Shown one piece after another: positions 1-60,701 of a DNA stretch of 63,887 bases. The DNA is from an uncultured Erysipelotrichaceae bacterium (GTDB lineage Bacteria; Bacillota_I; Bacilli_A; RFN20; CAG-826). Position 1 is the stretch's first letter, and each line of letters starts with the position of its first letter. The notes beneath the pieces are model-generated. The model saw only the letters and a program-made list of their open reading frames with translations, was not told the DNA's origin and did no database searches. The DNA is taken from the NCBI GenBank assembly GCA_900317165.1, contig ONFU01000009.1, positions 1-63,887 of the forward strand. The letters run 5' to 3'. The position numbers and the translations under genes were made by a program.

Positions 1-2573
1 GCGGCCGAATCGGTCTTGAAGTCGATGACCGTGTCGTTCATGTGGTTAGCGACCAAATAGTTGTAGATATCCACTGATGGATAAGGAACCTCGTTCTTGT
101 TGATGGCCATATGGAAACTGAGGTTGGTCGTGTTGAAATTGGTGTAGAGGGAATATTGGTGGTTCGGGGAGATATAGACGATGCGGTTTTGATCATCGAA
201 CTCCTGGGTGAAACCTAATTCATATAAGGAATATGGGTATTCGTTATAGACGGTCATGGCCTTCTTTTCGCCATCATACATAAGGCCTTGAATCTCGAAG
301 CGTCCAGATTCTGGACCATCGGTCTTGAGGTCGAACAATTTGACGTTGCCAAGTTTTGGTAACGGATCGGTGAATCCGAAGGCTGCCAATGTTTCCGCGA
401 CGAGTTTGCTATCCCAAGCATCAGGTGCATCGGGGATGACGTATTTGGTTGGGGTGACGCCTTCAGCAAGGCCAAAGACCATCTTGGAGGTCATCGATTT
501 GACGCTACCCATGCCATCGGTATAGACCTCGGTTACCTCAAAGAACAGTTCGTTCTTCTTGGCGTCGAGATAGAACCTCTTGGCGAAAGTCGTATCTCCG
601 GATGCGCCATTGATGACCTGGTCTTCGCCATTGAAGTCGATCGCGTAGATGTCCTCGCCATAATATTTATCGGAGGCTGCGGTTGGCTCAATGGAATAGG
701 AACCGCGGACGACGAATTCGTTTTGCTCGATCCTCCCAGATTCCGGAACCATCGCGAACTTAGCTTCGCCATATCCTTCCTCGAAGAGGCTGATCGCGGA
801 ATTCGCATATCCTTGTTGGTAACGCAAAGCCAAGTTGTCGTCTCCGCCTTCAAGTCTCGTAAGTTCCTTGAAGTTGAAGAGTTTGTTTTCGACTAACTGT
901 TCGTAATTATCATCATGAGGATCCTCTGGGAGATTATCCAAACGGCTTGGGGAATCGTTGACGGCTTCGAATTCGATGCCGCCTTTGAAAGAGACGCTTG
1001 AGCCGGCACCCTTGGAGGTGGTGATATAGCCTTCTGCCTTGAAGGATTCGGTGGAAGGAAGGTAATCGAAGTACATGTAATCGCCTAGGACGAAGACTTC
1101 CTGTCCGTAATCATTGATGTGATCACCATGATAGTATTTGCCGGCCTTGCCATTGAAGTAGGTTTCCAAAATAACTTCGGAGTAGACATACGAATCACTG
1201 ACTTCGGAATCGAAATGGCCCAAGAAGGCGTAATTGATTCTGCCGTCTGCTGAGGTGGAATACATCTCAAACGAAGCTCCGGTGATGTTTCCGTCATCAT
1301 CAATTTCGCCGTCATCGAAGAAGGAGACGGTGATGGTGGAGAGGAAGTTTTCGAGCCATTCCTTGGTGTATTTTGGATCTTCGGAATAACCATCCGCCAT
1401 AGATTCGGCCTTATATTTAAGGGTTAACCCCGCAAATGGATTGAGCTTATCGTCTTCCTGGCTCTCCGCGACGACGGTGATTTCGCAGGTCGCGATTAAT
1501 TTGCCTAAGGTGGCCGTGATGGTCGCCTTGCCTTCAGCAACGGCAGTCACGATGCCATATTCGTTAACGATGACGACGTTTTCGTTGCTGGAATTGAAAG
1601 TCGGCATCGAAGGAGTGGCGTCAGCCGGTTCAAAGATCATCGAGAGGGATTTGCTCTCGCCGACTTTCAAGGTCAAAGCCTTATCTACGAACTCGATTTT
1701 GGTGACATCGACGCCTGGGGCGACTTCCGGCAAAGTAACCTCTGTTGTGCCCCATTTTTCGGTGGTGATATTGACTGAGCCTCCTCCAGTAGGAGCGGAC
1801 GCTTTGTAAGACATCGAAATCAATTTCTGATCTTCGAATTTGATGACGATATCGGTGACATTGACTTCAAAGGTTCCTTCATCGTCTTCCATAACCCAAA
1901 CGTCGGAGGCTTTGACATAGGCATGAAGATCGCCATTGAAGGTGAACTCATTGAAGGCCCATGGATGGATGAAGGTTCCTACGATTGCCATGTATTGGGT
2001 AGCGACCGCGGCGCTTACGTTTACTTTTGTCCATTTGCCATCGCTGGATTGGACGTACATATCGTAAGTGCCATCTTGTTTAGGAACCGTATATGTGTTG
2101 AATTCCGATTCGCCGCCGACGGCTTTCAAATGGAGCTTGCCGTTTTCGTTTTCGATGAGGACTGTTTCGGTCGAGCCGTTATCTTGAACGGCCACGATAT
2201 TGAAGGTCAGGTTGTTGTTTACGCCAAAATAACCACCTCTTGTGATGTTCTCGGTCCAGAGGTTTTCGCTGACTTTATATTTTTCAAGCCCTTGTTCGCT
2301 GCTTGATTGATCGGGGCTTGTGGATTCCGATGATTCCACGGGCCCCGTTTCAGAAGAATCGTGTTCGCCTTCGCTTGAAGCGGATGATTCTCCGGAAGTC
2401 GATTCACCTTCGCTTGGTCTTGAAGTAGATGACTCCTCGGTGGTTAATGAGGTTGTCGCGCTGCCTTCGCTTCCGCCACTAGAGGAAGAGGATTCTGGAG
2501 CAACGCCAGGAGAGCAACTCGCCAAAAGGGCGGTCAGGGCAACCGCTGATAAAAGAATAAATGACCGTTTCAT
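1..2573 (-). CDS. Surface lipoprotein with Ser/Glu-rich linker and bacterial Ig-like (Big_2-type) domain; C-terminus runs off the left edge
   Basis: Absent from the supplied ORF track because it is open to the window edge. Reverse-strand ATG at 2573-2571 is preceded by GGAGGA. N-terminus MKRSFILLSAVALTALLASC is a signal peptide plus lipobox (LASC), followed by an S/E/G-rich linker. Segment VTKIEFVDKALTLKVGESKSL...IVTAVAEGKATITATLG fits the Big_2 pattern. My manual translation stays open to position 1. Track ORFs in 254-2598 are off-frame shadows. Confidence 0.8.
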   Translation of the reverse strand, partial: MKRSFILLSAVALTALLASCSPGVAPESSSSSGGSEGSATTSLTTEESSTSRPSEGESTSGESSASSEGEHDSSETGPVESSESTSPDQSSSEQGLEKYKVSENLWTENITRGGYFGVNNNLTFNIVAVQDNGSTETVLIENENGKLHLKAVGGESEFNTYTVPKQDGTYDMYVQSSDGKWTKVNVSAAVATQYMAIVGTFIHPWAFNEFTFNGDLHAYVKASDVWVMEDDEGTFEVNVTDIVIKFEDQKLISMSYKASAPTGGGSVNITTEKWGTTEVTLPEVAPGVDVTKIEFVDKALTLKVGESKSLSMIFEPADATPSMPTFNSSNENVVIVNEYGIVTAVAEGKATITATLGKLIATCEITVVAESQEDDKLNPFAGLTLKYKAESMADGYSEDPKYTKEWLENFLSTITVSFFDDGEIDDDGNITGASFEMYSTSADGRINYAFLGHFDSEVSDSYVYSEVILETYFNGKAGKYYHGDHINDYGQEVFVLGDYMYFDYLPSTESFKAEGYITTSKGAGSSVSFKGGIEFEAVNDSPSRLDNLPEDPHDDNYEQLVENKLFNFKELTRLEGGDDNLALRYQQGYANSAISLFEEGYGEAKFAMVPESGRIEQNEFVVRGSYSIEPTAASDKYYGEDIYAIDFNGEDQVINGASGDTTFAKRFYLDAKKNELFFEVTEVYTDGMGSVKSMTSKMVFGLAEGVTPTKYVIPDAPDAWDSKLVAETLAAFGFTDPLPKLGNVKLFDLKTDGPESGRFEIQGLMYDGEKKAMTVYNEYPYSLYELGFTQEFDDQNRIVYISPNHQYSLYTNFNTTNLSFHMAINKNEVPYPSVDIYNYLVANHMNDTVIDFKTDSA

Positions 2574-2899
2574 ATTTGGTCCTCCATTGCAAAAATAATT
2601 TAAGGCTTTATGTGCGGTTAGACAAGGATTATATGTATATAATCTATGCTCGTGCATACACGCAAATTGGCATTTTCGACCACCGTTTCTAAAGATTTTA
2701 CGGTTTTGCGAAATCTCTAATTTAGTATCCATTTTGTTAATTTTAGATTCGCGCTTACGCACGTGTTCTTAAGCGTGCGAGAATGGCGTTTGGAAAAATA
2801 AAAATTTTTTGAAATTTCTTTGCAAAAATGTGGTGAGAAATTCAAAAAGATTAGAAATAATCGAAGAAAAATATTAATAAAAAAATTTTTAAAAAACTC

Positions 2900-2927
2900 T
2901 TGACAAGGATAAAAATATCTCCATAAT
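2900..2927 (+). promoter_or_regulatory. Sigma70-type promoter with A/T-rich UP-like tract, driving the 2931-4153 RNA
   Basis: TTGACA (2900-2905), 16-nt spacer, CATAAT (2922-2927). Positions 2820-2899 are almost pure A/T (aaaaatttttaaaaaactc just upstream of the -35). Confidence 0.6.
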
Positions 2928-3003
2928 TATGCTCCTGCCGCTTGAAAAGGCGACAGTAAGGAGCTAAGGTCCTTCTGGTAACAGGGGTGACCCGTTAAGC
3001 TCC

Positions 3004-3030
3004 GGGAGCTGGAACTTCGCTCCCAAGAAG
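3004..3030 (+). repeat. ncRNA hairpin module A: GGGAGC-UGGAACUUC-GCUCCC followed by AAGAAG
   Basis: Read directly; shares loop and 3' tail with modules B-D, stem differs but remains complementary. Confidence 0.75.
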
Positions 3031-3134
3031 ATCGCGGCCGAGTCGAGTCGAGCGAGCCGAACCGCAACATGGTCAAAGCCGTGTTGTCAGGAGTTAGGGT
3101 AACCGAGTAATCGGTCGAAACCCGCCAAGCTCCA

Positions 3135-3160
3135 GGGTCTGGAAATTCGACCCTAAGAAG
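3135..3160 (+). repeat. ncRNA hairpin module B: GGGUC-UGGAAAUUC-GACCC followed by UAAGAAG
   Basis: Read directly; 5' flank ACCCGCCAAGCUCC parallels ACCCGUUAAGCUCC before module A. Confidence 0.75.
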
Positions 3161-3384
3161 ATTGGGGAGCGTGCTTCTCAATCCGCAGCGAACCCCCTGC
3201 AGCGATGCAGGCGCCGGCTACCGTACCTTGAGTAATCTAGGAACCGGGCACAAGTCGGAACACCTTGCTTGGGTGTTGAGAAAGGGAATGGGAAACCTGA
3301 ACCAAGGCCAAGCAACGGCGATAATGTATCGTCGGTACCGGATAGGGCAGCGGAAGTAATTCCGCCGAACCTGCAGAAGCCGGA

Positions 3385-3410
3385 AGGTCTGGAACTTCGA
3401 CCTTAAGAAA
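3385..3410 (+). repeat. ncRNA hairpin module C: AGGUC-UGGAACUUC-GACCU followed by UAAGAAA
   Basis: Read directly; same loop as module A with a co-varied stem. Confidence 0.7.
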
Positions 3411-3510
3411 ACCGCTGGACACGTCTAGCGGATCGAACCGTGGGAAACGGTAGAACGCTTCCCTGATCGCATAGGGTCTTCTGAGAAATTGGTTTGACCT
3501 GATAAGGCGA

Positions 3511-3539
3511 GCGGTCTGGCACACATCGGCCGCAAGAAG
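3511..3539 (+). repeat. ncRNA hairpin module D: GCGGUC-UGGCACACAUC-GGCCGC followed by AAGAAG
   Basis: Read directly; loop keeps 5' UGG and 3' UC, stem includes one U-G wobble. Confidence 0.6.
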
Positions 3540-4127
3540 GAACCGCGCAAGTGGTTCACAACCCGGAGCCGTGAGAGAAATCTCGCGCAGCTGGCTAGGG
3601 CGACTGCGATAGCATCAAGGACCCGCCTTCGCAAGCCAGGCGGTTAGCTTCCGACCGTACGAAGGCCGAGAGACGAAAGTCTCCAGTCGAGAGGGAGCGC
3701 ACATCACGTAAGTGGTGTGGTCCGGAGAGGGTACGATCTCACGAAGATCGCAACCCGTTAACAAACCGGGCGGCAAGGTAACCCCGCCGCAAGAAGGGCA
3801 AGGAAAACAGGCCTTGTCCGGAGTGGTCCGCTCCATGGGCAAAACCATGGAAGTCCAGTTAGGGCGCTTGAGCGATCAAGAATTCCTGCTAAAACTGGGG
3901 AAGATGATTGGCGCTCCCTGCCGATCACCGTCCAAGAAGGAAGGCTGTCAGGTCTTCCGCCGCCAGGAGGAGCGGTTAAGAAAAACCTTCTACTTCCGGA
4001 AAAGGGAAAGGCTGAGGACAAAAGCCCTCTCCCGGGATCCGGCGCCTTGTATCAGGCGAGAAGAACCAAAGCGTAAGTCAGGGTTCAAAGATGCGCCAGG
4101 GAAGCCACCTGATCGATTGGCTTGGGA

Positions 4128-4153
4128 GGGTGAGAGTGATCTCATCCTTTTTT
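4128..4153 (+). terminator. Intrinsic terminator ending the 2931-4153 RNA
   Basis: GGGTGAGA (4128-4135), loop GTGA, TCTCATCC (4140-4147), then TTTTTT (4148-4153). Confidence 0.75.
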
Positions 4154-4227
4154 GTTATTTATTGGCTATCGGTTTGCAAAAAAGTACTATAGTTTCGTGT
4201 AGCAAAAGTTCGAAAAGGAGGAAAAGT

Positions 4228-4779
4228 ATGAAAAAAACATTTCCTTTGCCTTTAATCTTAATGTGCCTTTCTTCATGTGGAGGTCAAGCCAATCCATATG
4301 GGACGATAGACCAAGAATCCTTAACTGCCATTTCCGGAAGTTATTATTTCTACGCGCCTAATGGCTGGTATGAAGAGAATCCAGAATGCGAACCCGTTAC
4401 CCTAGAGCTTAGAAGCGACTTAACCTACACGATTAATCTCGGAGAAGAATCCTATCAGCAAAAATACGAGATCCATCGCGTCAAAAACGAGGCCGCTAGA
4501 GATTATCAATATGCCGGAAGCATCGGCGATCCTTACCCCGAGGATAAAATACACAGCTATTCGATTGCCTTCGATTTTATCGATAAGGAACTCCCCTCTC
4601 CTTTAGCCTCTTCCTTCAGCCATTATAAAATGTCTTATCAATTCATCTATGTGGCCGTTGAGAAATACGGTTCGTATAAAAAAGGCACCACGTGGCTCAC
4701 CAAATATGGGGCCGCCATGGCAGATCCTATCTATGAGAGGGATCCAGATAGTAGGGGCATGACCTTCTATAAAGATTAA
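4228..4779 (+). CDS. Small lipoprotein, function unknown
   Basis: ATG at 4228 is preceded by AAAGGAGGA. MKKTFPLPLILMCLSSCGG is a signal peptide plus lipobox (LSSC). The track ORF 3712-4779 over-extends upstream through the terminator. Confidence 0.8.
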   Translation: MKKTFPLPLILMCLSSCGGQANPYGTIDQESLTAISGSYYFYAPNGWYEENPECEPVTLELRSDLTYTINLGEESYQQKYEIHRVKNEAARDYQYAGSIGDPYPEDKIHSYSIAFDFIDKELPSPLASSFSHYKMSYQFIYVAVEKYGSYKKGTTWLTKYGAAMADPIYERDPDSRGMTFYKD

Positions 4780-4852
4780 GCTTTATTAATAACCACTTAG
4801 CAAAAAAGCGTTTAGGTATTACAATACTTCCATATCTTAAAGGAGCAAACAA

Positions 4853-5080
4853 ATGGCAACCAAAGTCTATCATGTTTCCAAACGCGAAAAAGACGGCAAA
4901 TGGCAGGTCTTTATTCAGGGCAGCGATAAGGTCATCAAACTCTTCGATACCCGCAAGGAAGCCGAAGAATACTGCAAAGAGATGGCCAAGAACCAAGACG
5001 CCACCCTTCTCGTCCACAAATCCAAGGGCGAAAACAAAGGCAAAATTGATAAAGCCGTCCATAAATCCACCAAAAAGTAA
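4853..5080 (+). CDS. DUF2188-like small protein
   Basis: SD AAAGGAG. MATKVYHVSKREKDGKWQV...FDTRKEAEEYCKEMAKNQDATLLVHKSKG resembles the DUF2188 pattern. Confidence 0.65.
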   Translation: MATKVYHVSKREKDGKWQVFIQGSDKVIKLFDTRKEAEEYCKEMAKNQDATLLVHKSKGENKGKIDKAVHKSTKK

Positions 5081-5088
5081 TTTAAGCT

Positions 5089-5655
5089 ATGAGTGCTAGA
5101 GGAACGGCTAACCGCGATTCCTCAATCTTTCTTGAATTAGTTCGCTTCGTCTTGATCGGGGCCTATGCCACGGTCATCGATTACGTTGTCGAAGTATGGC
5201 TTGAATCCCTCCTTTCAGGATGGATTACTTCCAACCCCGGAAATCACCTATTCGCCTTTATGGCGACCTTTGTAATCGGGCTCGTGGGCTTCCTTTTCGG
5301 AACCCCGGCCACCTGGTCCTTAAGCGCGGTTTGGGGATTCCGCAACGTCGAAGACGAGAGAAAGGGCAAATCCTTAAAAGGCGCGTTGATCTTCACCGCC
5401 TTCGCCTTCGCTGGATTGGTCCTAGCTTCGATTATCCAATTCCTTGGCTACATGACTTGCCTTGAATGGACGAATCTGAACATCAACATTCTCAACATCA
5501 ATTTCTCGACCCTCTTCAAAGAGGACGTCGCGACTTTCTGGGCCTTCACGATTATCTTCGTTTTGAAGACGGTCGTCTCGATGACGTTCAATTACCTCAC
5601 GAGGAAATTCATTATCTTCAGGGCCCCCAAGAAGAAAGAAGAACCCGCGGAATAA
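5089..5655 (+). CDS. GtrA-family membrane protein
   Basis: LVRFVLIGAYATVIDYVVEVWL start and four predicted TM helices are typical of GtrA-like proteins. Confidence 0.7.
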   Translation: MSARGTANRDSSIFLELVRFVLIGAYATVIDYVVEVWLESLLSGWITSNPGNHLFAFMATFVIGLVGFLFGTPATWSLSAVWGFRNVEDERKGKSLKGALIFTAFAFAGLVLASIIQFLGYMTCLEWTNLNINILNINFSTLFKEDVATFWAFTIIFVLKTVVSMTFNYLTRKFIIFRAPKKKEEPAE

Positions 5656-52814: not shown

Positions 52815-55800
52815 ATGCAAGAAGACAAATTCACCCCGATGACCGAATTCAAGAATTACCCGGTCGGCATCAATGGACGTCTAGATTTCTCTAAGATTTC
52901 CGGACGTTTGCCCTTGCCCTATCTATGCGAAATCCAAGTGGATTCCTATCGTTGGTTCCTTGAGAAGGGAATCGACGACGTCCTCCGCGAGGTCTTCCCG
53001 ATCTCGAACTACACGGGGACCCTTTCAATTGACTATTATTCCTGCCGCCTCGAGGAGCCAAAATATAGCCCTCTCGAATGCAAAGCGGGAGACATGACTT
53101 ATTCAAGCAAGCTCAAAGTCAAATTGTTCCTCAAATTCAAGAGCACCGGCGAAATCAAGCAAGCCGAGGTCTACATGGGTGAAATCCCCTTAATGACCGA
53201 ATCCGGCACCTTCATCGTCAACGGTGCCGAACGCGTTATCGTCTCGCAGATCGTCCGTTCCCCTGGCGCTTATGTCCAGGATACCGTCGATAAGAACGGC
53301 ACCCATCTCTATAATGGCGAGATCATCCCAACCCACGGTACTTGGCTACAGTTCGAGACCGACGCCAAGAACATTTCCTACGTCCGTATCGACCGTCAAA
53401 GGAAGATGCCTTCCGTCATCCTTTTCAAGGCCCTTGGCATCGATGACGTCGATAAAATCCGTGAATTGTTCGGCGATAACGAACATATCAACAACACCTT
53501 AAGGAAAGATGAAGACAACAAGAACCAAATCCAGGCCCTTGGTGACATCTTCTCCAAATTGAAACCGGGCGAACCGATCACCGAAGAAGGCCTCCGTACC
53601 TTCCTCATCCAGAAATTCTTCGATGAGAAGCGTTATGACCTTGGCCGTGCCGGACGTTATAAATACCTCCAAAAACTCGGTATCTATAACCGTCTCCCTG
53701 GCCGCGTCCTCGCTGAGCCACTCGTCTCCGCGGAAGGCGAAATCCTCTTCCCAGAAGGCCATAAGCTCACCAAGGAGGAAGTCAACAGCCTCCGCGACGC
53801 CGAAGTCTTCGAGAAAGGCGCCCACACCGAGACCCTTAAAGTCGACACGAAGATCGATGACAATTCGACCGTCAACGTCCTTAAGGTCTACGCCCATGAT
53901 AAGCAGGGCGGAGACGTCGTCCGCATCGTCGGTACCAACCTCAACTGCGGACTCCATCGCGTCACCGTTTCCGACATGGTCGCTTGCTTCTCGTATTTCT
54001 GCAACATCATGGATGGCATCGGAAATACCGATGATATCGACCATCTTGGCAACCGTCGCGTCCGCTGCGTCGGAGAGCTTCTCCAGACCCAGTTCCGCCT
54101 CGGCCTCAACAAGATGAGCAAGACCGTCCAGCAGAAGATGTCCATCTCCGACCTCGAATCGGTCACCTTGCAACAGCTTATCAACATCCGTCCCCTCACG
54201 ACCTCCGTCCGTGGATTCTTCGCCTCTTCCCAGCTCTCGCAGTTCATGGATCAGACGAACCCCCTCGCCGAACTTACCAACAAGCGCCGTATCTCCGCTT
54301 TAGGTCCTGGTGGACTTACCCGTGACCGCGCTTCCATGGAAGTCCGCGACGTCCATTACACCCATTACGGCCGTATCTGCCCAATCGAATCTCCAGAAGG
54401 TCAGAACATCGGTCTTATCAACAACCTTTCCACCTATGCGAAGATCAACCGTTATGGCTTCATTGAGACCCCATACCGTTCCATCTTCCATGATCCGAAG
54501 ACCGGTCGAGCCTTCGTCGCCGAAGAAAAGACCGAATACCTCTCCGCCGATGGCGAAAGGGGCCTATACATCGCCGAAGCCAACATCAAACTCGGCGAGG
54601 TCTGCAAATTGAAGGAAGTCTGGAAAGGCTGCCCGAAGGGCGAAGGCGACCTCCTCGTTAGGGAAATCGTCGACTCCGAAGTCGTCGTCCGTCATGACGA
54701 AGACAACCTCTCCGTCGACCGTTCCCTCGTCGATTTCGTCGACGTCTCGCCGAAGCAGATCGTTTCGATCGCCGCGGCTTGCATCCCCTTCCTCAACCAC
54801 GACGACGCGACCCGTGCTCTCATGGGCGCGAACATGCAACGTCAGGCCTTGCCTCTCCTCCGTCCGTCCATCCCATATGTCGGAACCGGTATGGAGCATG
54901 TCATTGCCAAAGACTCCGGCTTAGCCGTCGTCGCCGTCAATGACGGAACCGTCAAATATGTCGATTCCAGGACCATCGTCGTCCGCGAAGGCAAGGAAAA
55001 CCGCACCTATCAATTGCAGAAATTCGACCGTTCCAACAACGGTACCTGCATCAACCAAACCCCAATCGTCAACGTTGGCGATAAGGTCAAGAAAGACCAG
55101 ATCATCGCGGATGGCCCAGCCATGCGCAATGGCGAGCTCGCCCTTGGCCAAAACATCCTCATCGCCTACATGACATGGAACGGCTACAACTACGAAGACG
55201 CCGTCATCATGAGTGAGAGGATGGTTAAGGAAGATACCTTCACCACCATCCACATCGAGAAATTCGAGTGCGAATGCCGCGACACCAAACTCGGTGCCGA
55301 GACCATCACCCGCGATATTCCAAACGTCGGTGACGAAGCTAAGAAATGGCTCGATGAAGACGGCATCATCATCGAAGGTGCCGAGGTCAAGGAAGGTGAC
55401 ATCCTCGTCGGTAAAGTCACCCCGAAGGGCCAGACCGAACCGACCCCAGAGGAAAAGCTCCTCATGGCCATCTTCGCCGAGAAGACGAAGGAAGGAAAGG
55501 ATTCCTCCCTCCGCGTTCCTCATGGCGGAGCCGGTATCATCCATTCCGTCAAGATCTTCTCCCGTGAGAAGAAGGACCCACTCCCCCCAGGAGTCACCAA
55601 GGTCGTCCGCGTCTATATCGTCCAGAAGAGGAAGATCTCCGAAGGCGATAAGATGTCTGGCCGCCACGGCAACAAGGGCGTCATCTCCAAGATCCTCCCG
55701 GTCGAGGATATGCCATTCCTAGCCGATGGTACCCCAATCGACATCCTCCTCTCCCCGATGGGCGTTCCTTCCCGTATGAACATCGGTCAGATCTTCGAGA

Positions 55801-56543
55801 TCCATTTGGGCCTCGCCTGCAGCAAGCTCCATATGCGCGTTGCGACCCCGGCCTTCGATGGCGTCTCCAACGAGGAAGTCTTCGAAATCATGCAGAAAGC
55901 CGGTATTTCCAAAGACGGAAAGACCGTCCTCTACGATGGCCGCACCGGTGAGCCGTTCGCCGAACGTATCGCCGTCGGTGTGCAATACATGATCAAACTC
56001 GTCCACATGGTCGACGACAAATTGCACGCCCGTGCCACCGGCCCATATTCACTCGTCACCCAGCAGCCTTTAGGCGGTAAAGCCCAAAACGGCGGCCAGC
56101 GTTTCGGTGAAATGGAAGTGTGGGCCCTAGAGGCTTATGGCGCTGCCCATACCCTCCAGGAAATGCTCACCATCAAATCCGATGACCGCGTCGGGCGCCG
56201 CAAGACCTACGAAGCGATCATCAAACAAAACGAGATTCCAAAGCCCGGCATCCCCGAAGCCTTCAAGGTCTTCACCAAGGAACTCAAGGGTCTTTGTATG
56301 AACGTCACCCTCTTCAACCAAGACGGTGAGGAAATCGACACCGACGCCCTCGCGAAGATGTCCCTCATCGAGGAAAGGAAGGTCAATTCCTCCATCCGTT
56401 CCGCGATGGCGCCTCGCGATAATGGCGAAGGCAGCGACGGACCTAACTTCGACGAACCGGCCGTCACGGTCGCCGAAGACCTAGCCGCCGAAGAAGGCCT
56501 CTCGGTTGGATTCAACCCAAGTGGTCTCAACTCTGATGATTAA
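52815..56543 (+). CDS. rpoB: DNA-directed RNA polymerase subunit beta
   Basis: 1242 aa, SQLSQFMDQTNPL, GDKMSGRHGNKGV. Confidence 0.98.
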   Translation: MQEDKFTPMTEFKNYPVGINGRLDFSKISGRLPLPYLCEIQVDSYRWFLEKGIDDVLREVFPISNYTGTLSIDYYSCRLEEPKYSPLECKAGDMTYSSKLKVKLFLKFKSTGEIKQAEVYMGEIPLMTESGTFIVNGAERVIVSQIVRSPGAYVQDTVDKNGTHLYNGEIIPTHGTWLQFETDAKNISYVRIDRQRKMPSVILFKALGIDDVDKIRELFGDNEHINNTLRKDEDNKNQIQALGDIFSKLKPGEPITEEGLRTFLIQKFFDEKRYDLGRAGRYKYLQKLGIYNRLPGRVLAEPLVSAEGEILFPEGHKLTKEEVNSLRDAEVFEKGAHTETLKVDTKIDDNSTVNVLKVYAHDKQGGDVVRIVGTNLNCGLHRVTVSDMVACFSYFCNIMDGIGNTDDIDHLGNRRVRCVGELLQTQFRLGLNKMSKTVQQKMSISDLESVTLQQLINIRPLTTSVRGFFASSQLSQFMDQTNPLAELTNKRRISALGPGGLTRDRASMEVRDVHYTHYGRICPIESPEGQNIGLINNLSTYAKINRYGFIETPYRSIFHDPKTGRAFVAEEKTEYLSADGERGLYIAEANIKLGEVCKLKEVWKGCPKGEGDLLVREIVDSEVVVRHDEDNLSVDRSLVDFVDVSPKQIVSIAAACIPFLNHDDATRALMGANMQRQALPLLRPSIPYVGTGMEHVIAKDSGLAVVAVNDGTVKYVDSRTIVVREGKENRTYQLQKFDRSNNGTCINQTPIVNVGDKVKKDQIIADGPAMRNGELALGQNILIAYMTWNGYNYEDAVIMSERMVKEDTFTTIHIEKFECECRDTKLGAETITRDIPNVGDEAKKWLDEDGIIIEGAEVKEGDILVGKVTPKGQTEPTPEEKLLMAIFAEKTKEGKDSSLRVPHGGAGIIHSVKIFSREKKDPLPPGVTKVVRVYIVQKRKISEGDKMSGRHGNKGVISKILPVEDMPFLADGTPIDILLSPMGVPSRMNIGQIFEIHLGLACSKLHMRVATPAFDGVSNEEVFEIMQKAGISKDGKTVLYDGRTGEPFAERIAVGVQYMIKLVHMVDDKLHARATGPYSLVTQQPLGGKAQNGGQRFGEMEVWALEAYGAAHTLQEMLTIKSDDRVGRRKTYEAIIKQNEIPKPGIPEAFKVFTKELKGLCMNVTLFNQDGEEIDTDALAKMSLIEERKVNSSIRSAMAPRDNGEGSDGPNFDEPAVTVAEDLAAEEGLSVGFNPSGLNSDD

Positions 56544-56561
56544 GGAAAGGAGAACGCAACA

Positions 56562-59500
56562 ATGGCAGATATCAATCTTACCCTAGAAGCGACTTCCGCG
56601 ATGGAAGAAGCGCCCCGTCGTCGTGAACCCCGTTCCTCCAATGGAAAAGAGACCTTCGACATCAACAACCTTTCGGCGGTCCAAGTCGGCTTAGCCTCCC
56701 CAGAAACCATCCGTTCCTGGTCCAAAGGCGAAGTCACCCGTGCCGAAACCATCAACTACCGTAGCCAAAAACCGGAAATGGGAGGTCTCTTCTGCGAAAA
56801 GATCTTCGGTCCGGCCAAAGACTATGAATGCCACTGCGGCAAATACAAAAAGATCAGATACCAAGGCATCACCTGCGAGAAGTGTGGCGTTGAGGTCATC
56901 TCCAAGGAATGGAGACGCGAGAGGATGGGCCATATCGAGCTCGTCTCCCCTTGCTCCCATATCTGGTACCTCAAATCCATCCCTTCCCGTATGGGTCTTA
57001 TCCTCGATATCTCCCCGAAGCAACTCGAGGAAGTCATCTATTTCGCCGCCCACATCGTCTTGAACAAAGGCAATGCGGACAAACTCAAATACAAACAGTA
57101 TATCTCCGAGGCCGTTGGCCGTGATGTTTTCCCGGGTGTCCTCCGCGATATCCTCGAAACCGGCACACCAGCCAAGGATACCCTCGATTACGAGCGCGCC
57201 GTCCACCTCATTGAGAGCTTGGAAAAGAAGAACGAGGCCGGTACCTATACCGAAGCCTACGACATCCTTTCCGTCACGAGCTTCATCAACAAATACACCG
57301 GAGCCGAATTCGGCCAGGGTGCCGCGGCCATCAAGAGGCTTCTCCACGAAGTCGATCTCGACAAGGAATTCAACGAACTCAAAGCCGAACTCCTCAAAGA
57401 GAGCGAGGACAAGACCTCGGCCCAGAAGAAGCTCAAAGACGCCAAACGCCTCGAGGTCATCTCCGCTTTCCGCGATTCCGGACAGAAACCGGAATGGATG
57501 GTCCTCGACGTCATCCCCGTCATCCCACCGGATCTCCGTCCGATGCTTCAACTCGACGGCGGACGTTTCGCCGCGAGCGACCTCAACGACCTCTATCGCC
57601 GTGTCATCTCCCGTAACACCCGTTTGAAGAAGCTCATCGACATGAAGGCCCCATACGTCATCATGATGAATGAGAAGCGTATGTTGCAGGAAGCCGTCGA
57701 CGCCCTCATCGATAACGGTCGCCGTACGAAGGCCATCACCGGTCCAAACGGCCGTCCGTTAAAGTCCCTATCCGCTGGATTAAAGGGCAAGCCCGGTCGT
57801 TTCCGTCAGAACCTCCTCGGCAAACGTGTCGACTATTCCGGACGTTCCGTCATCGCGGTCGGACCGGACCTAAAGATGTATCAATGCGGCATCCCAAGAG
57901 AGATGGCGATCCAACTTCTCCGTCCCTTCATCGCCGCGATCCTTATCAAGGAGCAGAAGGTCAACGCCCATAAGGCGGCCGATAAGATCATCGATCGTTA
58001 CGACCCAATCGTCTTCGATATCGTCGAACGCATCATCTCCGATCACCCCGTCCTCCTTAACCGTGCCCCAACCCTTCATAGGCTATCCATTCAGGCCTTC
58101 CAGCCAAAGCTCGTCGATGGCCGTGCGATCCGTTTGCACCCCCTCGTCTGCCCTGGCTTCAACGCCGACTTCGATGGTGACCAGATGGCCGTCCACGTCC
58201 CATTAGGGAAAGCGGCCCAACAGGAAGCCGTCAAATTGATGCTCGCCTCCAACAACATCCTTGGTCCTAAGGATGGTAAGGCCATCGTCGTTCCTGGACA
58301 GGATATGATCCTTGGCAACTGGCACCTCACCACCGAGGAAACCGCGGACGACTTCCTTGCCCGCGCCAAAGCTCTCCGTGCCATCGAGGAAACCGAGGAG
58401 AAGGACGGCACCGCCGCACTTGAACGTGCCGAAATCCTCCGCATGGCCGAAAAGGATGAGGAATTCGCCGCTAACGAAGCCAAGGTCTTCGCTAACGTCG
58501 ACGAAGTCTTCCTCGCCTATAACGCCAATGCCGTTTCCCTCCATTCCCGTATTGCTATCCCCGCCTCCAAAATCCATAAGGACGAAGGCAAGGGTATGCC
58601 AAGGGGCGTGATGGGCAAATACCTCATCACCACCGTCGGTAAGATCATCTTCAATGAAGTCTTCCCAGACGACTTCCCCTATATCAACGACGCCATCAAG
58701 GGCGATTCCACCCTCACCCTTCTCGCCAAACTCAAAGGCGACTTCGTCTCCCCTGCCGATATCGAAGGCAAGGTGAAGGAAGAAGAGGGCAAATCCCCAC
58801 TTGCTTCCTATGTCGCTTCCCGTCCTTTGAAGAACGCTATCGGCAAGGTCTCCCTCGGCTTGCTCATCGACCTCCTTTTCAAGGAATATGGTACTTCCAA
58901 GACTTCCGCGGTCCTCGATAAGATCAAAGACCAAGGCTTCAAGTACTCGATGATCTCCGCGGTCACCGTCTCCATCAGCGACATCAAAGACGTCGACAAG
59001 AAGTACGACCTCGTCGCCGAAGGACAAGCCAAAGTCGATCAGATCGAAAGAGCCTATCGCCATGGCTTCCTCACCGTCGAAGAACGTCATAAGCAAATCG
59101 TCGCCATCTGGACCGATATCACCAATCGCGTCAAAGGCCTCGTCGCCAAACAGATGCAAAACGACAAGCGCAACCCGCTCGTCATCATGGCCGACTCCAA
59201 GTCCCGTGGCTCCGTCGATAACTTCAAGCAGCTCATCGGTATGAAAGGCCTTGTCGCTAACCCAAAGAACGAGGAAATCGAACTTCCGATCATCTCCTCT
59301 TACCTCGAAGGTATGAAGGTCAGCGAGTTCTTCATCAACACCCACGGTGCCCGTAAGGGTTCCGCAGATACCGCCCTTAAGACCGCGGACTCCGGTTATC
59401 TTACCAGGCGTCTAGTCGACGTCTCCCAGGATGTCGTCGTCCGTGAGGATGACTGCCATACCGACCATGGCTTCAAGGTCCGCGAAATCCGCGATACCTC

Positions 59501-60701
59501 CCAAGACACGGTCATCCGTTCCCTCCAAGAACGTATCATCGGCCGTTATTCCATGCGCGACGTCGTCAATTCCGACGGCATCGTCCTCGTCAGGGCCAAT
59601 GAGCTCATCACCGAGGACATCGCCGAAGCGATCGTCAACGCGGGCATCAAGGAAGTCGAGATCCGTTCCGTCTTCACCTGCCAAACCAAAGATGGCGTCT
59701 GCCGTCATTGCTATGGTCTTAACATGGCGACTGGTCAACTCGTCGAAAAAGGCGAGGCGGTCGGTATCATGGCCGCCCAATCCATCGGCGAACCTGGTAC
59801 CCAGCTCACCATGCGAGTCTTCCATACTGGTGGTATGGCCGGTACCGACATCACCCAGGGTCTTCCCCGTGTCCAAGAGCTCGTCGAAGCCCGTAACCCG
59901 AAAGGCGAGGCCCTTATCTCCAAGATCGATGGCTATGTCTATAGCGTCGAACCGAAGAACGAATGCTACACGGTCGTCATCCGTAAATATCGTAACGGTG
60001 ACCCAACCGACAATTCTCCGGAGAACATCCTCGACGAGAAGACGGAAGAAACCCCATACGGTGCCCGTCTCCGCATCTCCGCGAAGGTCGATCCCGCGCA
60101 TCCTCAGCACGTTGAAGCCGGCGCGAAGATCACCGAAGGCGCCATCTCGCCAAAGACCCTCCTTAGCTATGCGGGTGTCGAGAAACTCGAGATCTACATG
60201 ATCAAGGAAATCCAGAAGGTCTATCACTCTCAGGGTATCGGCATTTCCGATAAGCACCTTGAGATCATCATCCGTCAGATGCTCCGCAAGGTGCAGATCA
60301 ACGATGGTGGCGATACCTCCTTGCTCCCTGGCACGAGGGTCTCGGTCGCGAAATTCACCGAAGAGAACGCGAAAGCCCTTCTCGAAGGCAAGCGCCCGGC
60401 CGTCTGCAGCCCACTCGTCCTCGGCATCACCAAAGCCGCCCTCGAAACCGAATCCTTCCTCTCCGCCGCCTCCTTCCAGGAGACGACCCGCGTCCTCACC
60501 GACGCCGCCATCAAAGCCAAGAAGGACTACCTCCATGGCTTGAAGGAAAACGTCATCACGGGCAAACTCATCCCAGCTGGCACTGGCTTACGCACCCCTG
60601 AAGAAGAGGAAGAGGCCCTTGCCGGATTCACCGTCGCCTCCGCGATGGATGAGGTCAAGGACAAATACATCGAGAAGCATGACCGTCGTCATCACGCCTA
60701 A
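56562..60701 (+). CDS. rpoC: DNA-directed RNA polymerase subunit beta'
   Basis: 1379 aa, zinc motif CHCGKYKK...CEKCG, catalytic NADFDGDQMAVH. Confidence 0.98.
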   Translation: MADINLTLEATSAMEEAPRRREPRSSNGKETFDINNLSAVQVGLASPETIRSWSKGEVTRAETINYRSQKPEMGGLFCEKIFGPAKDYECHCGKYKKIRYQGITCEKCGVEVISKEWRRERMGHIELVSPCSHIWYLKSIPSRMGLILDISPKQLEEVIYFAAHIVLNKGNADKLKYKQYISEAVGRDVFPGVLRDILETGTPAKDTLDYERAVHLIESLEKKNEAGTYTEAYDILSVTSFINKYTGAEFGQGAAAIKRLLHEVDLDKEFNELKAELLKESEDKTSAQKKLKDAKRLEVISAFRDSGQKPEWMVLDVIPVIPPDLRPMLQLDGGRFAASDLNDLYRRVISRNTRLKKLIDMKAPYVIMMNEKRMLQEAVDALIDNGRRTKAITGPNGRPLKSLSAGLKGKPGRFRQNLLGKRVDYSGRSVIAVGPDLKMYQCGIPREMAIQLLRPFIAAILIKEQKVNAHKAADKIIDRYDPIVFDIVERIISDHPVLLNRAPTLHRLSIQAFQPKLVDGRAIRLHPLVCPGFNADFDGDQMAVHVPLGKAAQQEAVKLMLASNNILGPKDGKAIVVPGQDMILGNWHLTTEETADDFLARAKALRAIEETEEKDGTAALERAEILRMAEKDEEFAANEAKVFANVDEVFLAYNANAVSLHSRIAIPASKIHKDEGKGMPRGVMGKYLITTVGKIIFNEVFPDDFPYINDAIKGDSTLTLLAKLKGDFVSPADIEGKVKEEEGKSPLASYVASRPLKNAIGKVSLGLLIDLLFKEYGTSKTSAVLDKIKDQGFKYSMISAVTVSISDIKDVDKKYDLVAEGQAKVDQIERAYRHGFLTVEERHKQIVAIWTDITNRVKGLVAKQMQNDKRNPLVIMADSKSRGSVDNFKQLIGMKGLVANPKNEEIELPIISSYLEGMKVSEFFINTHGARKGSADTALKTADSGYLTRRLVDVSQDVVVREDDCHTDHGFKVREIRDTSQDTVIRSLQERIIGRYSMRDVVNSDGIVLVRANELITEDIAEAIVNAGIKEVEIRSVFTCQTKDGVCRHCYGLNMATGQLVEKGEAVGIMAAQSIGEPGTQLTMRVFHTGGMAGTDITQGLPRVQELVEARNPKGEALISKIDGYVYSVEPKNECYTVVIRKYRNGDPTDNSPENILDEKTEETPYGARLRISAKVDPAHPQHVEAGAKITEGAISPKTLLSYAGVEKLEIYMIKEIQKVYHSQGIGISDKHLEIIIRQMLRKVQINDGGDTSLLPGTRVSVAKFTEENAKALLEGKRPAVCSPLVLGITKAALETESFLSAASFQETTRVLTDAAIKAKKDYLHGLKENVITGKLIPAGTGLRTPEEEEEALAGFTVASAMDEVKDKYIEKHDRRHHA

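Follow-up and report, generated by a model that had tools for sequence, protein, structure and literature searches.

The stretch analysed here (the window: 63,887 nt of contig ONFU01000009.1 from an uncultured Erysipelotrichaceae bacterium) carries a non-coding and highly structured RNA gene, predicted to be independently transcribed, of about 1.22 kb at 2931-4153 on its plus strand, with its own conserved promoter and terminator (coordinates are positions in the window unless another locus is named). The RNA consists of nine diverged tandem copies of a covarying ~72-nt fold, fixed in number and order, and this arrangement matches no Rfam 15 family and no RNA in the searched literature. Large conserved bacterial RNAs without a known function are rare, and OLE, GOLLD, ROOL and raiA each opened new biology or structural principles. 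The present RNA bears on the evolution of large RNAs by internal duplication, as in repeat proteins, and makes single-chain pseudo-symmetric RNA architecture a testable question. Its annotation would also correct public records, since gene callers place spurious open reading frames (ORFs) on it. A first-pass annotation of the window had proposed a large, structured, self-contained RNA outside the known classes, and massive covariation, the lack of a coding signature and a negative result with Rfam 15 bear this out. That it is a real, new structured non-coding RNA (ncRNA) is almost certain, and its division into nine tandem paralogous modules in fixed order is held with high confidence.

Homologues of the RNA were found at seven further loci (L013, L015, L025, L027, L029, L030 and L051), giving with the window eight distinct full-length sequences. 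They come from rumen and gut Bacilli genome bins and metagenome contigs and represent 4-5 clades with 58-69% identity between clades. The homologue search and covariation analysis suggested in the first-pass annotation returned a strong compensatory signal. RNAalifold predicted 295 pairs on the 8-sequence alignment, 141 of them with compensatory double changes. A related consensus contains 334 pairs in 61 helices and pairs in 92.5% of the cells, compared to 32-49% in slid controls, in which the pairing partners were displaced by 1-3 columns. Double changes occur at 148 of the 334 consensus pairs (24-45 in the slid controls), the covariation score is 0.432 (0.06-0.12 for the slid controls) and none of 500 shuffles reached the observed pairing or covariation values. 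Against dinucleotide shuffles, the two halves of the RNA have folding z-scores of -5.2 and -4.3. The functional strand is the plus strand, because G-U cells (268) far exceed A-C cells (57); the minus-strand reading of the same helices pairs in 84.6% of the cells. GNRA tetraloops close 13 of the 37 hairpin loops of the consensus fold. The seven hairpins listed in the first-pass annotation all exist, with clear compensatory support for five (3197-3210, 3540-3557, 3670-3683, 3700-3719 and 3734-3750) and weaker or partial support for two (3796-3819 and 3833-3850). The density of hairpins was thus rightly seen at that stage, but the nine tandem paralogous modules were missed.

A conserved reading frame, named in advance as the sign of a protein, was looked for in the homologues and is absent: there is no codon periodicity, substitutions hitting each codon position about equally often (44/50/46 and 56/48/52), most indels that separate close relatives measure 1-2 nt, and the homologues share no ORF. 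As had been noted before, the gap holds no credible coding sequence. Its ORFs are short and overlap each other on both strands, and the 355-aa ORF at 3712-4779 is an upstream extension of the lipoprotein frame starting at 4228. Two public gene calls lie antisense within homologues of the RNA, a 98-aa ORF at 4800-5096 (-) of L029 and a 156-aa ORF at 4526-4996 (-) of L051. Neither is conserved, and both look like annotation artefacts.

The starting clue for the modular architecture was a set of three copies of a hairpin with the loop CUGGAAMUUCG followed by AAGAAG, which turned out to be part of a larger repeated module. The units measure ~124-142 nt from start to start and comprise a core of ~72 nt followed by a spacer of 50-59 nt, mostly with two hairpins. 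Each core runs through helix Pa, a UA bulge, helices Pb and Pc, a return strand, helix Pd and the linker AAGAAGG. Pa has 6 bp and encloses the UA bulge, Pb is GGG/CCY, the hairpin Pc is usually capped by a GNRA loop, and the return strand CCYG-N-UAAG closes Pa. The Pd loop reads CUGG-A-UUCG in modules 1, 2 and 4. Module lengths (72/72/71/74/74/75/76/~86/68 nt) are nearly constant across species, and number and order are fixed across clades.

A covariance model (R1) was trained on modules 1, 2 and 4 only, from eight species, and searched with filters off over the whole 64 kb of the window on both strands. It recovered five untrained modules (5, 3, 8, 7 and 6) with E=4.7e-10 to 0.008, and nothing in the window outside the array scored below E=0.5. 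Module 6, at the upper end of this range in the window, reaches E=3e-06 to 5.5e-05 in the homologues. The most divergent copy, module 9, scores E=0.0014 at the orthologous position in L027 and L030, and its GAGGACAAA loop is invariant in all eight sequences. At E<0.01, R1 finds the full set of nine modules in two homologue loci, L027 and L030, and 6-7 modules in each of the remaining five; it finds none in five relatives without the RNA, nor in L026, a short contig. In an alignment of 58 module instances, 92.7% of the cells in the four helices are paired (at most 52% in slid controls) and all four helices covary; the module alignment has 339 compensatory cells against 98 in shuffles, values to be read knowing that this alignment was fitted to the R1 model and is biased towards its structure. 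Identity is 0.75 between orthologous modules, 0.63 between paralogous modules and 0.57 for a shuffled baseline. Since orthologues resemble each other more than paralogues do, the duplications are older than the split of the clades, and constraint acts on every copy individually. Tandem Repeats Finder did not see the array, because the units are too diverged. The features of the locus are collected in Table 1. At 3039-3060, in the first hairpin of spacer 1, there are 4.6 repeats of the pentanucleotide CGAGT.

Table 1. Features of the predicted RNA gene and its control elements, with the evidence for each
Feature	Position	Strand	Evidence or remarks
Predicted ~1.22-kb ncRNA	2931..4153	+	Homologues, covariation, no coding signal, no Rfam family
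A/T-rich tract just 5' of the -35 element	2860..2899	+	Sequence; G+C 0.275-0.315
Sigma-70-type promoter	2900..2927	+	-35 TTGACA 2900-2905, 16-nt spacer, -10 CATAAT 2922-2927
5' leader hairpin CUGCCGCU...GGCGACAG	2935..2956	+	Helix 1; 73% paired, weakest helix
Module 1 core; GUAA loop, Pd loop CUGGAACUUCG, AAGAAG end	2960..3031	+	R1 79.5 bits (training); helices 2-5
Spacer 1, two hairpins flanking invariant GCCGAACCGCA	3032..3089	+	Helices 6, 7, 9
Module 2 core, best conserved, 86% identity between clades	3090..3161	+	R1 80.6 bits (training); helices 10-13
Module 3 core, divergent, CCGGCUACCG...	3214..3284	+	R1 E=3e-07 (untrained); helices 17-20
Module 4 core	3338..3411	+	R1 78.7 bits (training); helices 26-28
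Module 5 core, Pd loop CUGGCACACAUCG	3467..3540	+	R1 E=4.7e-10 (untrained); helices 33-36
Module 6 core, conserved GAUAGCAUCAAGG in Pc	3591..3665	+	R1 E=0.008 (untrained); helices 40-43
Module 7 core	3722..3797	+	R1 E=6.6e-05 (untrained); helices 46-48
Module 8 core, enlarged Pd arm	3855..3940	+	R1 E=8e-06 (untrained); helices 50-53
Module 9 core, most divergent, GAGGACAAA loop	3997..4064	+	R1 E=1.6 in the window, not significant; helices 55-58
Spacers 2-8	3162-3213, 3285-3337, 3412-3466, 3541-3590, 3666-3721, 3798-3854, 3941-3996	+	Mostly two hairpins
Spacer 9 and 3' closing element	4065..4123	+	AAGCG-U/A-AAG hairpin; AUCGAUUGGC at 4112-4121; helices 8, 30, 59, 60
Intrinsic terminator	4124..4153	+	12-bp stem, GUGA loop (stem 4124-4151), then U-run

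The RNA lies in a gene-free gap of 1.65 kb (2574-4227) between two lipoprotein genes. The promoter claimed earlier is present, matches the consensus at 11 of 12 positions and is the best promoter-like site within 2400-4500; the A/T-rich tract before it is possibly an UP element, and similar tracts precede TTGAC in the homologues. The abundance proposed earlier for the RNA may follow from this strong promoter and tract. A -35 element TTGAC(A/T) is found in all six homologues that are aligned far enough upstream (the row of L051 starts at TGAC), and a -10-like hexamer and the terminator are kept in all eight sequences. The terminator was likewise confirmed as a stem followed by a T-run in the DNA. 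It is the sole plus-strand terminator-like site between 2400 and 4500, and its stem (helix 61) carries compensatory changes among the homologues. The 5' end is placed to within a few nt from the position of the -10 hexamer, and the 3' end would fall in the U-run of the terminator. In 200-nt windows, G+C is 0.53-0.62 inside the unit compared to 0.275-0.405 in the adjoining windows, in agreement with the switch in composition described earlier; the 22-30% given then for the flanks was slightly low. Both the G>C and the A>U skew are positive inside the unit.

The upstream gene lies on the minus strand (start 2573) and encodes a lipoprotein, MKRSFILLSAVALTALLASCS..., with a lipobox and a Big_2 domain. 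Between it and the RNA, 2600-2900 is a very A/T-rich divergent intergenic region of ~300 nt with inverted repeats at 2803-2819/2836-2852 and 2871-2891/2910-2930, which presumably also holds the promoter of the Big_2 lipoprotein gene. The downstream lipoprotein gene, beginning at 4228 (+), encodes an orphan protein of 183 aa (4228-4779), for which a search of 5.8 billion proteins found only its own cluster; Pfam and PADLOC gave no match. It is followed by a 75-aa DUF2188 protein (4853-5080, +) matching the PADLOC candidate defence family PDC-S16 with E=6e-13. The flanking genes are housekeeping genes; Pfam annotation of the flanks gave Big_2, DUF2188, GtrA, AAA_33, DtxR, GlnA and others, and no partner candidate for the RNA. 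Further along, two back-to-back ORFs of 1242 and 1379 aa (52815-60701, +) agree in size with rpoB and rpoC, and this pair suggests a chromosomal core region.

The species of the window recurs in many assemblies from cattle rumen; the RNA is identical in nine of the contigs and 99.7% identical in one more. Its GTDB representative, L019, bears the label 'uncultured Erysipelotrichaceae bacterium'. Two homologues, L013 ('Bacilli bacterium RUI057', nhmmer E=7e-173) and L015 ('Bacillota bacterium S34M_St_12', E=1e-102), both full-length, came from a motif scan of GTDB genomes with the pattern AAGC-N8-CTGGAANTTCG-N5-AAGAA. This pattern is too strict and would miss homologues with CTGGGAATTCG; 3 of the 13 loci it returned were true, and the true distribution may be wider than this single scan shows. 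The other five were reached by using a conserved neighbour, the gene for a tyrosine-phosphatase/NUDIX fusion (PTP-NUDIX), as a synteny handle; the 183-aa lipoprotein, being an orphan, was useless for this purpose. A metagenome scan with TCGGCCGCAAGAAGG-N5-CGNAAG gave 18 loci, three of them true and all three near-duplicates of sequences already found. As far as sampled, the RNA is confined to one clade of rumen and gut Bacilli (an Erysipelotrichaceae-like genome bin).

In the majority of relatives, the PTP-NUDIX gene and the DUF2188 gene enclose the RNA. The genes that adjoin it vary (Big_2 lipoprotein, orphan lipoprotein, aldose epimerase, 4HBT thioesterase, LRR protein or Endonuclease_1), and the context of L015 is wholly different, with an ABC transporter and an AAA ATPase. 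Five related contigs lack the RNA at the corresponding site. A neighbour-joining tree of the PTP-NUDIX protein places the RNA carriers together, as would be expected if the RNA was inherited vertically in a single clade and now and then lost or relocated. The stretch from PTP-NUDIX to DUF2188 (1-4800 in the window; also in L025, L027, L029, L030 and L051) is itself a variable island with species-specific cargo, an LRR_5 protein included, and in L052 the two genes are just 57 nt apart. In L015, masked bases (N) at ~4330-4560 interrupt an ABC-2 permease gene upstream of the RNA, so that this context is incompletely read.

Turning to what the nine modules might do together, long-range helices are predicted for the invariant spacer elements GCCGAACC, UCGAACC, AUCGAUUGGC and GGAGC with GCUCC; AUCGAUUGGC (4112-4121) would pair with GCCGA (3056-3060, with 4117-4121) and UCGA (3433-3436, with 4113-4116), and another long-range helix would join 3565-3569 to 3830-3834. 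Some modules also carry invariant elements of their own, namely ACCGAG-N-AAUCGGU in module 2, GAUAGCAUCAAGG in module 6 and GAGGACAAA in module 9. GNRA tetraloops in large RNAs typically mediate tertiary packing; a possible resemblance to the classical 11-nt tetraloop receptor was considered and set aside. From the fixed copy number and order, the module-specific invariants, the predicted long-range helices and the GNRA loops, we infer that the nine modules may act as one integrated particle and not as redundant copies. Such a particle would serve as a multivalent scaffold: its repeated junctions, its GNRA loops and its purine linkers might pack together or display a fixed array of similar binding surfaces. 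This integrated-scaffold reading is offered tentatively. A more specific form of it, speculative and on balance improbable, is that the modules fold back on each other through contacts of GNRA loops with receptor-like junctions, of Pd loops and of purine linkers to give a closed, pseudo-symmetric single-chain ring, solenoid or cage. If true, this would be to RNA what tandem-repeat proteins are to protein, and it would amount to a ROOL or GOLLD nanocage, which is homo-oligomeric, fused into a single chain. No earlier natural RNA would have been shown to have a tertiary architecture of tandem repeats, and no structured RNA class in bacteria outside the ribosome would be larger.

Several points weigh against the main explanation. 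The transcript, its ends and its abundance are all predicted from sequence, the covariation of the modules carries the bias mentioned above, and the homologues sample only 4-5 independent clades. The long-range helices are invariant, so covariation offers no support for them, nor evidence against them. A search for pseudoknots, as conserved helices outside the nested fold, gave only runs of 4-5 bp with 2-3 compensations, which are chance-like with eight sequences, a number at which such a scan has little power. The varying neighbour genes and the alien context of L015 indicate no partner protein or ligand. Two further contacts were considered and dropped: a pairing of the Pd loops (GGAA-N-UUC) with 3879-3889 (AAGAAUUCCUG), whose partner is not conserved in other clades, and a role of AAGAAGG as a decoy Shine-Dalgarno sequence, which is unlikely because its conserved central A breaks the GGAGG core used by local genes. 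The best explanation as a whole, a new structured ncRNA of nine modules that act as an integrated scaffold, is therefore held with moderate confidence, since its weakest part sets the level.

The rival that survives best, although unlikely, is that the RNA binds many copies of a single RNA-binding protein as a sponge or scaffold; each module, or each AAGAAGG linker and GGA-containing Pd loop, would hold one copy, and the protein would in this way be titrated or organised. The strong promoter, the conservation of the single-stranded purine linkers and the presence of nine copies of the same junction, loop and linker on one chain agree with this, as does UGGAA in the Pd loops of modules 1, 2 and 4. 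However, known sponges fix short sites and drift elsewhere, whereas here modules, spacers and copy number are all fixed, and modules have invariant elements of their own. The Pd loop motif is moreover missing from modules 6-9 (GGA is seen in Pd loops 1, 2 and 4 and in the loop of module 9, but not throughout), and no candidate partner gene is linked to the RNA.

The same regularity could be explained by a polycistronic precursor, i.e. a 1.2-kb transcript cut at the unit boundaries into nine different small RNAs of ~70-130 nt like a tRNA or small-RNA array. The period is regular (124-142 nt), every module has a helix Pa of its own to close it, the array as a whole has a single promoter and a single terminator, and the modules are individually conserved, as distinct products would be. 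Yet ARAGORN recognised no tRNA-like fold and Rfam no known small RNA, order and number are strictly fixed, and pairings over hundreds of nt are predicted for the conserved spacer elements. In addition, no stand-alone module was found elsewhere in the ~430 kb searched, save weak matches (E 0.01-0.12) at motif-preselected sites. Such a precursor is considered quite improbable.

Very improbable is a defence or toxin-antitoxin repeat RNA, such as a type III antitoxin like ToxI or the ncRNA of a reverse-transcriptase defence system. In such a system an effector gene would come after promoter, repeats and terminator. The layout of the first three agrees with it, and the RNA sits in a variable island near the DUF2188 gene with its PDC-S16 match. 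However, the repeats are ~128 nt long with ~63% identity and not short near-identical units, DUF2188 is also found in relatives where the RNA is absent, and no reverse transcriptase or endoribonuclease gene was recognised nearby. The protein immediately downstream has no Pfam or PADLOC match, and the gene after the terminator differs between species (orphan lipoprotein, aldose epimerase, 4HBT thioesterase or LRR protein). This variable downstream gene largely refutes the toxin-antitoxin or defence reading.

A divergent member of a known family (OLE, GOLLD, ROOL, HEARO, a group I or II intron, RNase P, transfer-messenger RNA (tmRNA), an rRNA fragment or a 5S-like array) would share the size class and the ornate, GNRA-rich fold, but the searches leave it hardly credible. 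As the first-pass annotation had advised, cmscan was run, with all 4227 Rfam 15 models; at gathering thresholds the 64-kb window had no match, and the seven homologue loci were negative too, also at E<=10. In the window at E<=10, the region 2600-4400 gave only noise with E>=1 (small nucleolar RNA, microRNA, CRISPR-repeat, long ncRNA and small RNA models); the CRISPR-repeat match had E=4.3, and there are no identical repeats in the locus. The covariance models of OLE, GOLLD and ROOL matched neither the window nor the homologue loci, and Pfam recognised no Oap proteins among the genes flanking the RNA in the window. Group II introns, HEARO (IS605 omega RNA) and retron RNAs gave no Rfam match either, and there is no reverse transcriptase, IscB or TnpB in the flanks. 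There was no covariance model match to RNase P, tmRNA, SRP, 6S or rRNA, and the absence of the RNA from the five related contigs fits a non-universal RNA. ARAGORN found no tRNA or tmRNA in the 64-kb window. BLASTN against 50,697 phage records and against a plasmid collection found nothing, and three pattern scans of viral contigs gave two chance sites only. One viral contig with a two-copy loop pattern (L011) was rejected as chance, the pattern lying inside an 854-aa ORF of an AT-rich phage with no wider similarity. The ~128-nt period and strings like CCGAAC and GUUAAGCUC resemble 5S rRNA; Rfam gives a 5S-like array no support, and the topology of the module, with Pa around a single arm and Pd outside, differs from 5S rRNA. 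A full-text literature search returned no description of such an RNA, within the limits of indexed work. Since the models, the phage and tRNA context and the search of the flanks for partner genes, i.e. the testable features of membership in the known families, all gave negative results, the RNA is classed as new, absent from Rfam 15 and from the searched literature.

Finally, a protein-coding or decayed gene or a cis-acting leader of the downstream lipoprotein gene has practically no probability: the 355-aa ORF and the ORFs called in two homologues would favour it, but frame-shifting indels and the absence of codon periodicity and of any conserved ORF contradict coding, the called ORFs are antisense and not conserved, and a leader is ruled out because a conserved terminator separates the RNA from downstream genes that differ by species.

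Among known RNAs with repeated motifs, bacterial CsrB and RsmZ act on CsrA and the repeat units of mammalian NORAD act on Pumilio. They share with the present RNA many copies of a motif per transcript, and hence multivalency. Here, however, the repeated element is not a short site but a covarying multi-helix fold of 72 nt (the Pa/Pb/Pc arm plus Pd), the copy number is fixed at nine and every copy keeps a conserved identity of its own. The STAXI motif (PMC2864571) and ToxI also place structured units head to tail in one transcript. Those units are short (tens of nt), closely similar and tied to specific gene classes, whereas the units here are ~128 nt long, ~63% identical and without a conserved neighbour, and Rfam gave no STAXI match. 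OLE, of ~600 nt, forms a ribonucleoprotein with OapA, OapB and OapC (PMC9723947). Like the present RNA, it is a large, conserved, stand-alone structured RNA in anaerobic Bacillota. It differs in that the present RNA has no Rfam match to it, is twice as long, is built of tandem modules and has a much narrower distribution, and oap-like genes are not recognised in its flanks.

The closest comparison is with ROOL, whose length is ~580 nt, and GOLLD. Both are, like this RNA, very large, G+C-rich, GNRA-rich and intricately folded with no function assigned; ROOL was first found in rumen samples, and the present RNA comes from rumen and gut metagenomes. GOLLD exceeds 800 nt, the two RNAs form RNA-only nanocages of 8 or 14 identical chains, and they occur in phages or prophages, often beside tRNA islands (PMC12286853). 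At ~1.22 kb, the present RNA is longer than OLE, ROOL and GOLLD, as had been expected from the first inspection, and exceeds typical GOLLD members by about 50%. By Rfam, it has no sequence or structure similarity to either GOLLD or ROOL. In contrast to them, it is chromosomal, with no tRNA island and no phage match, and its diverged repeats are intramolecular. All three rely on the repetition of a structural unit: GOLLD and ROOL bring identical chains together, and this RNA carries nine similar modules on a single chain.

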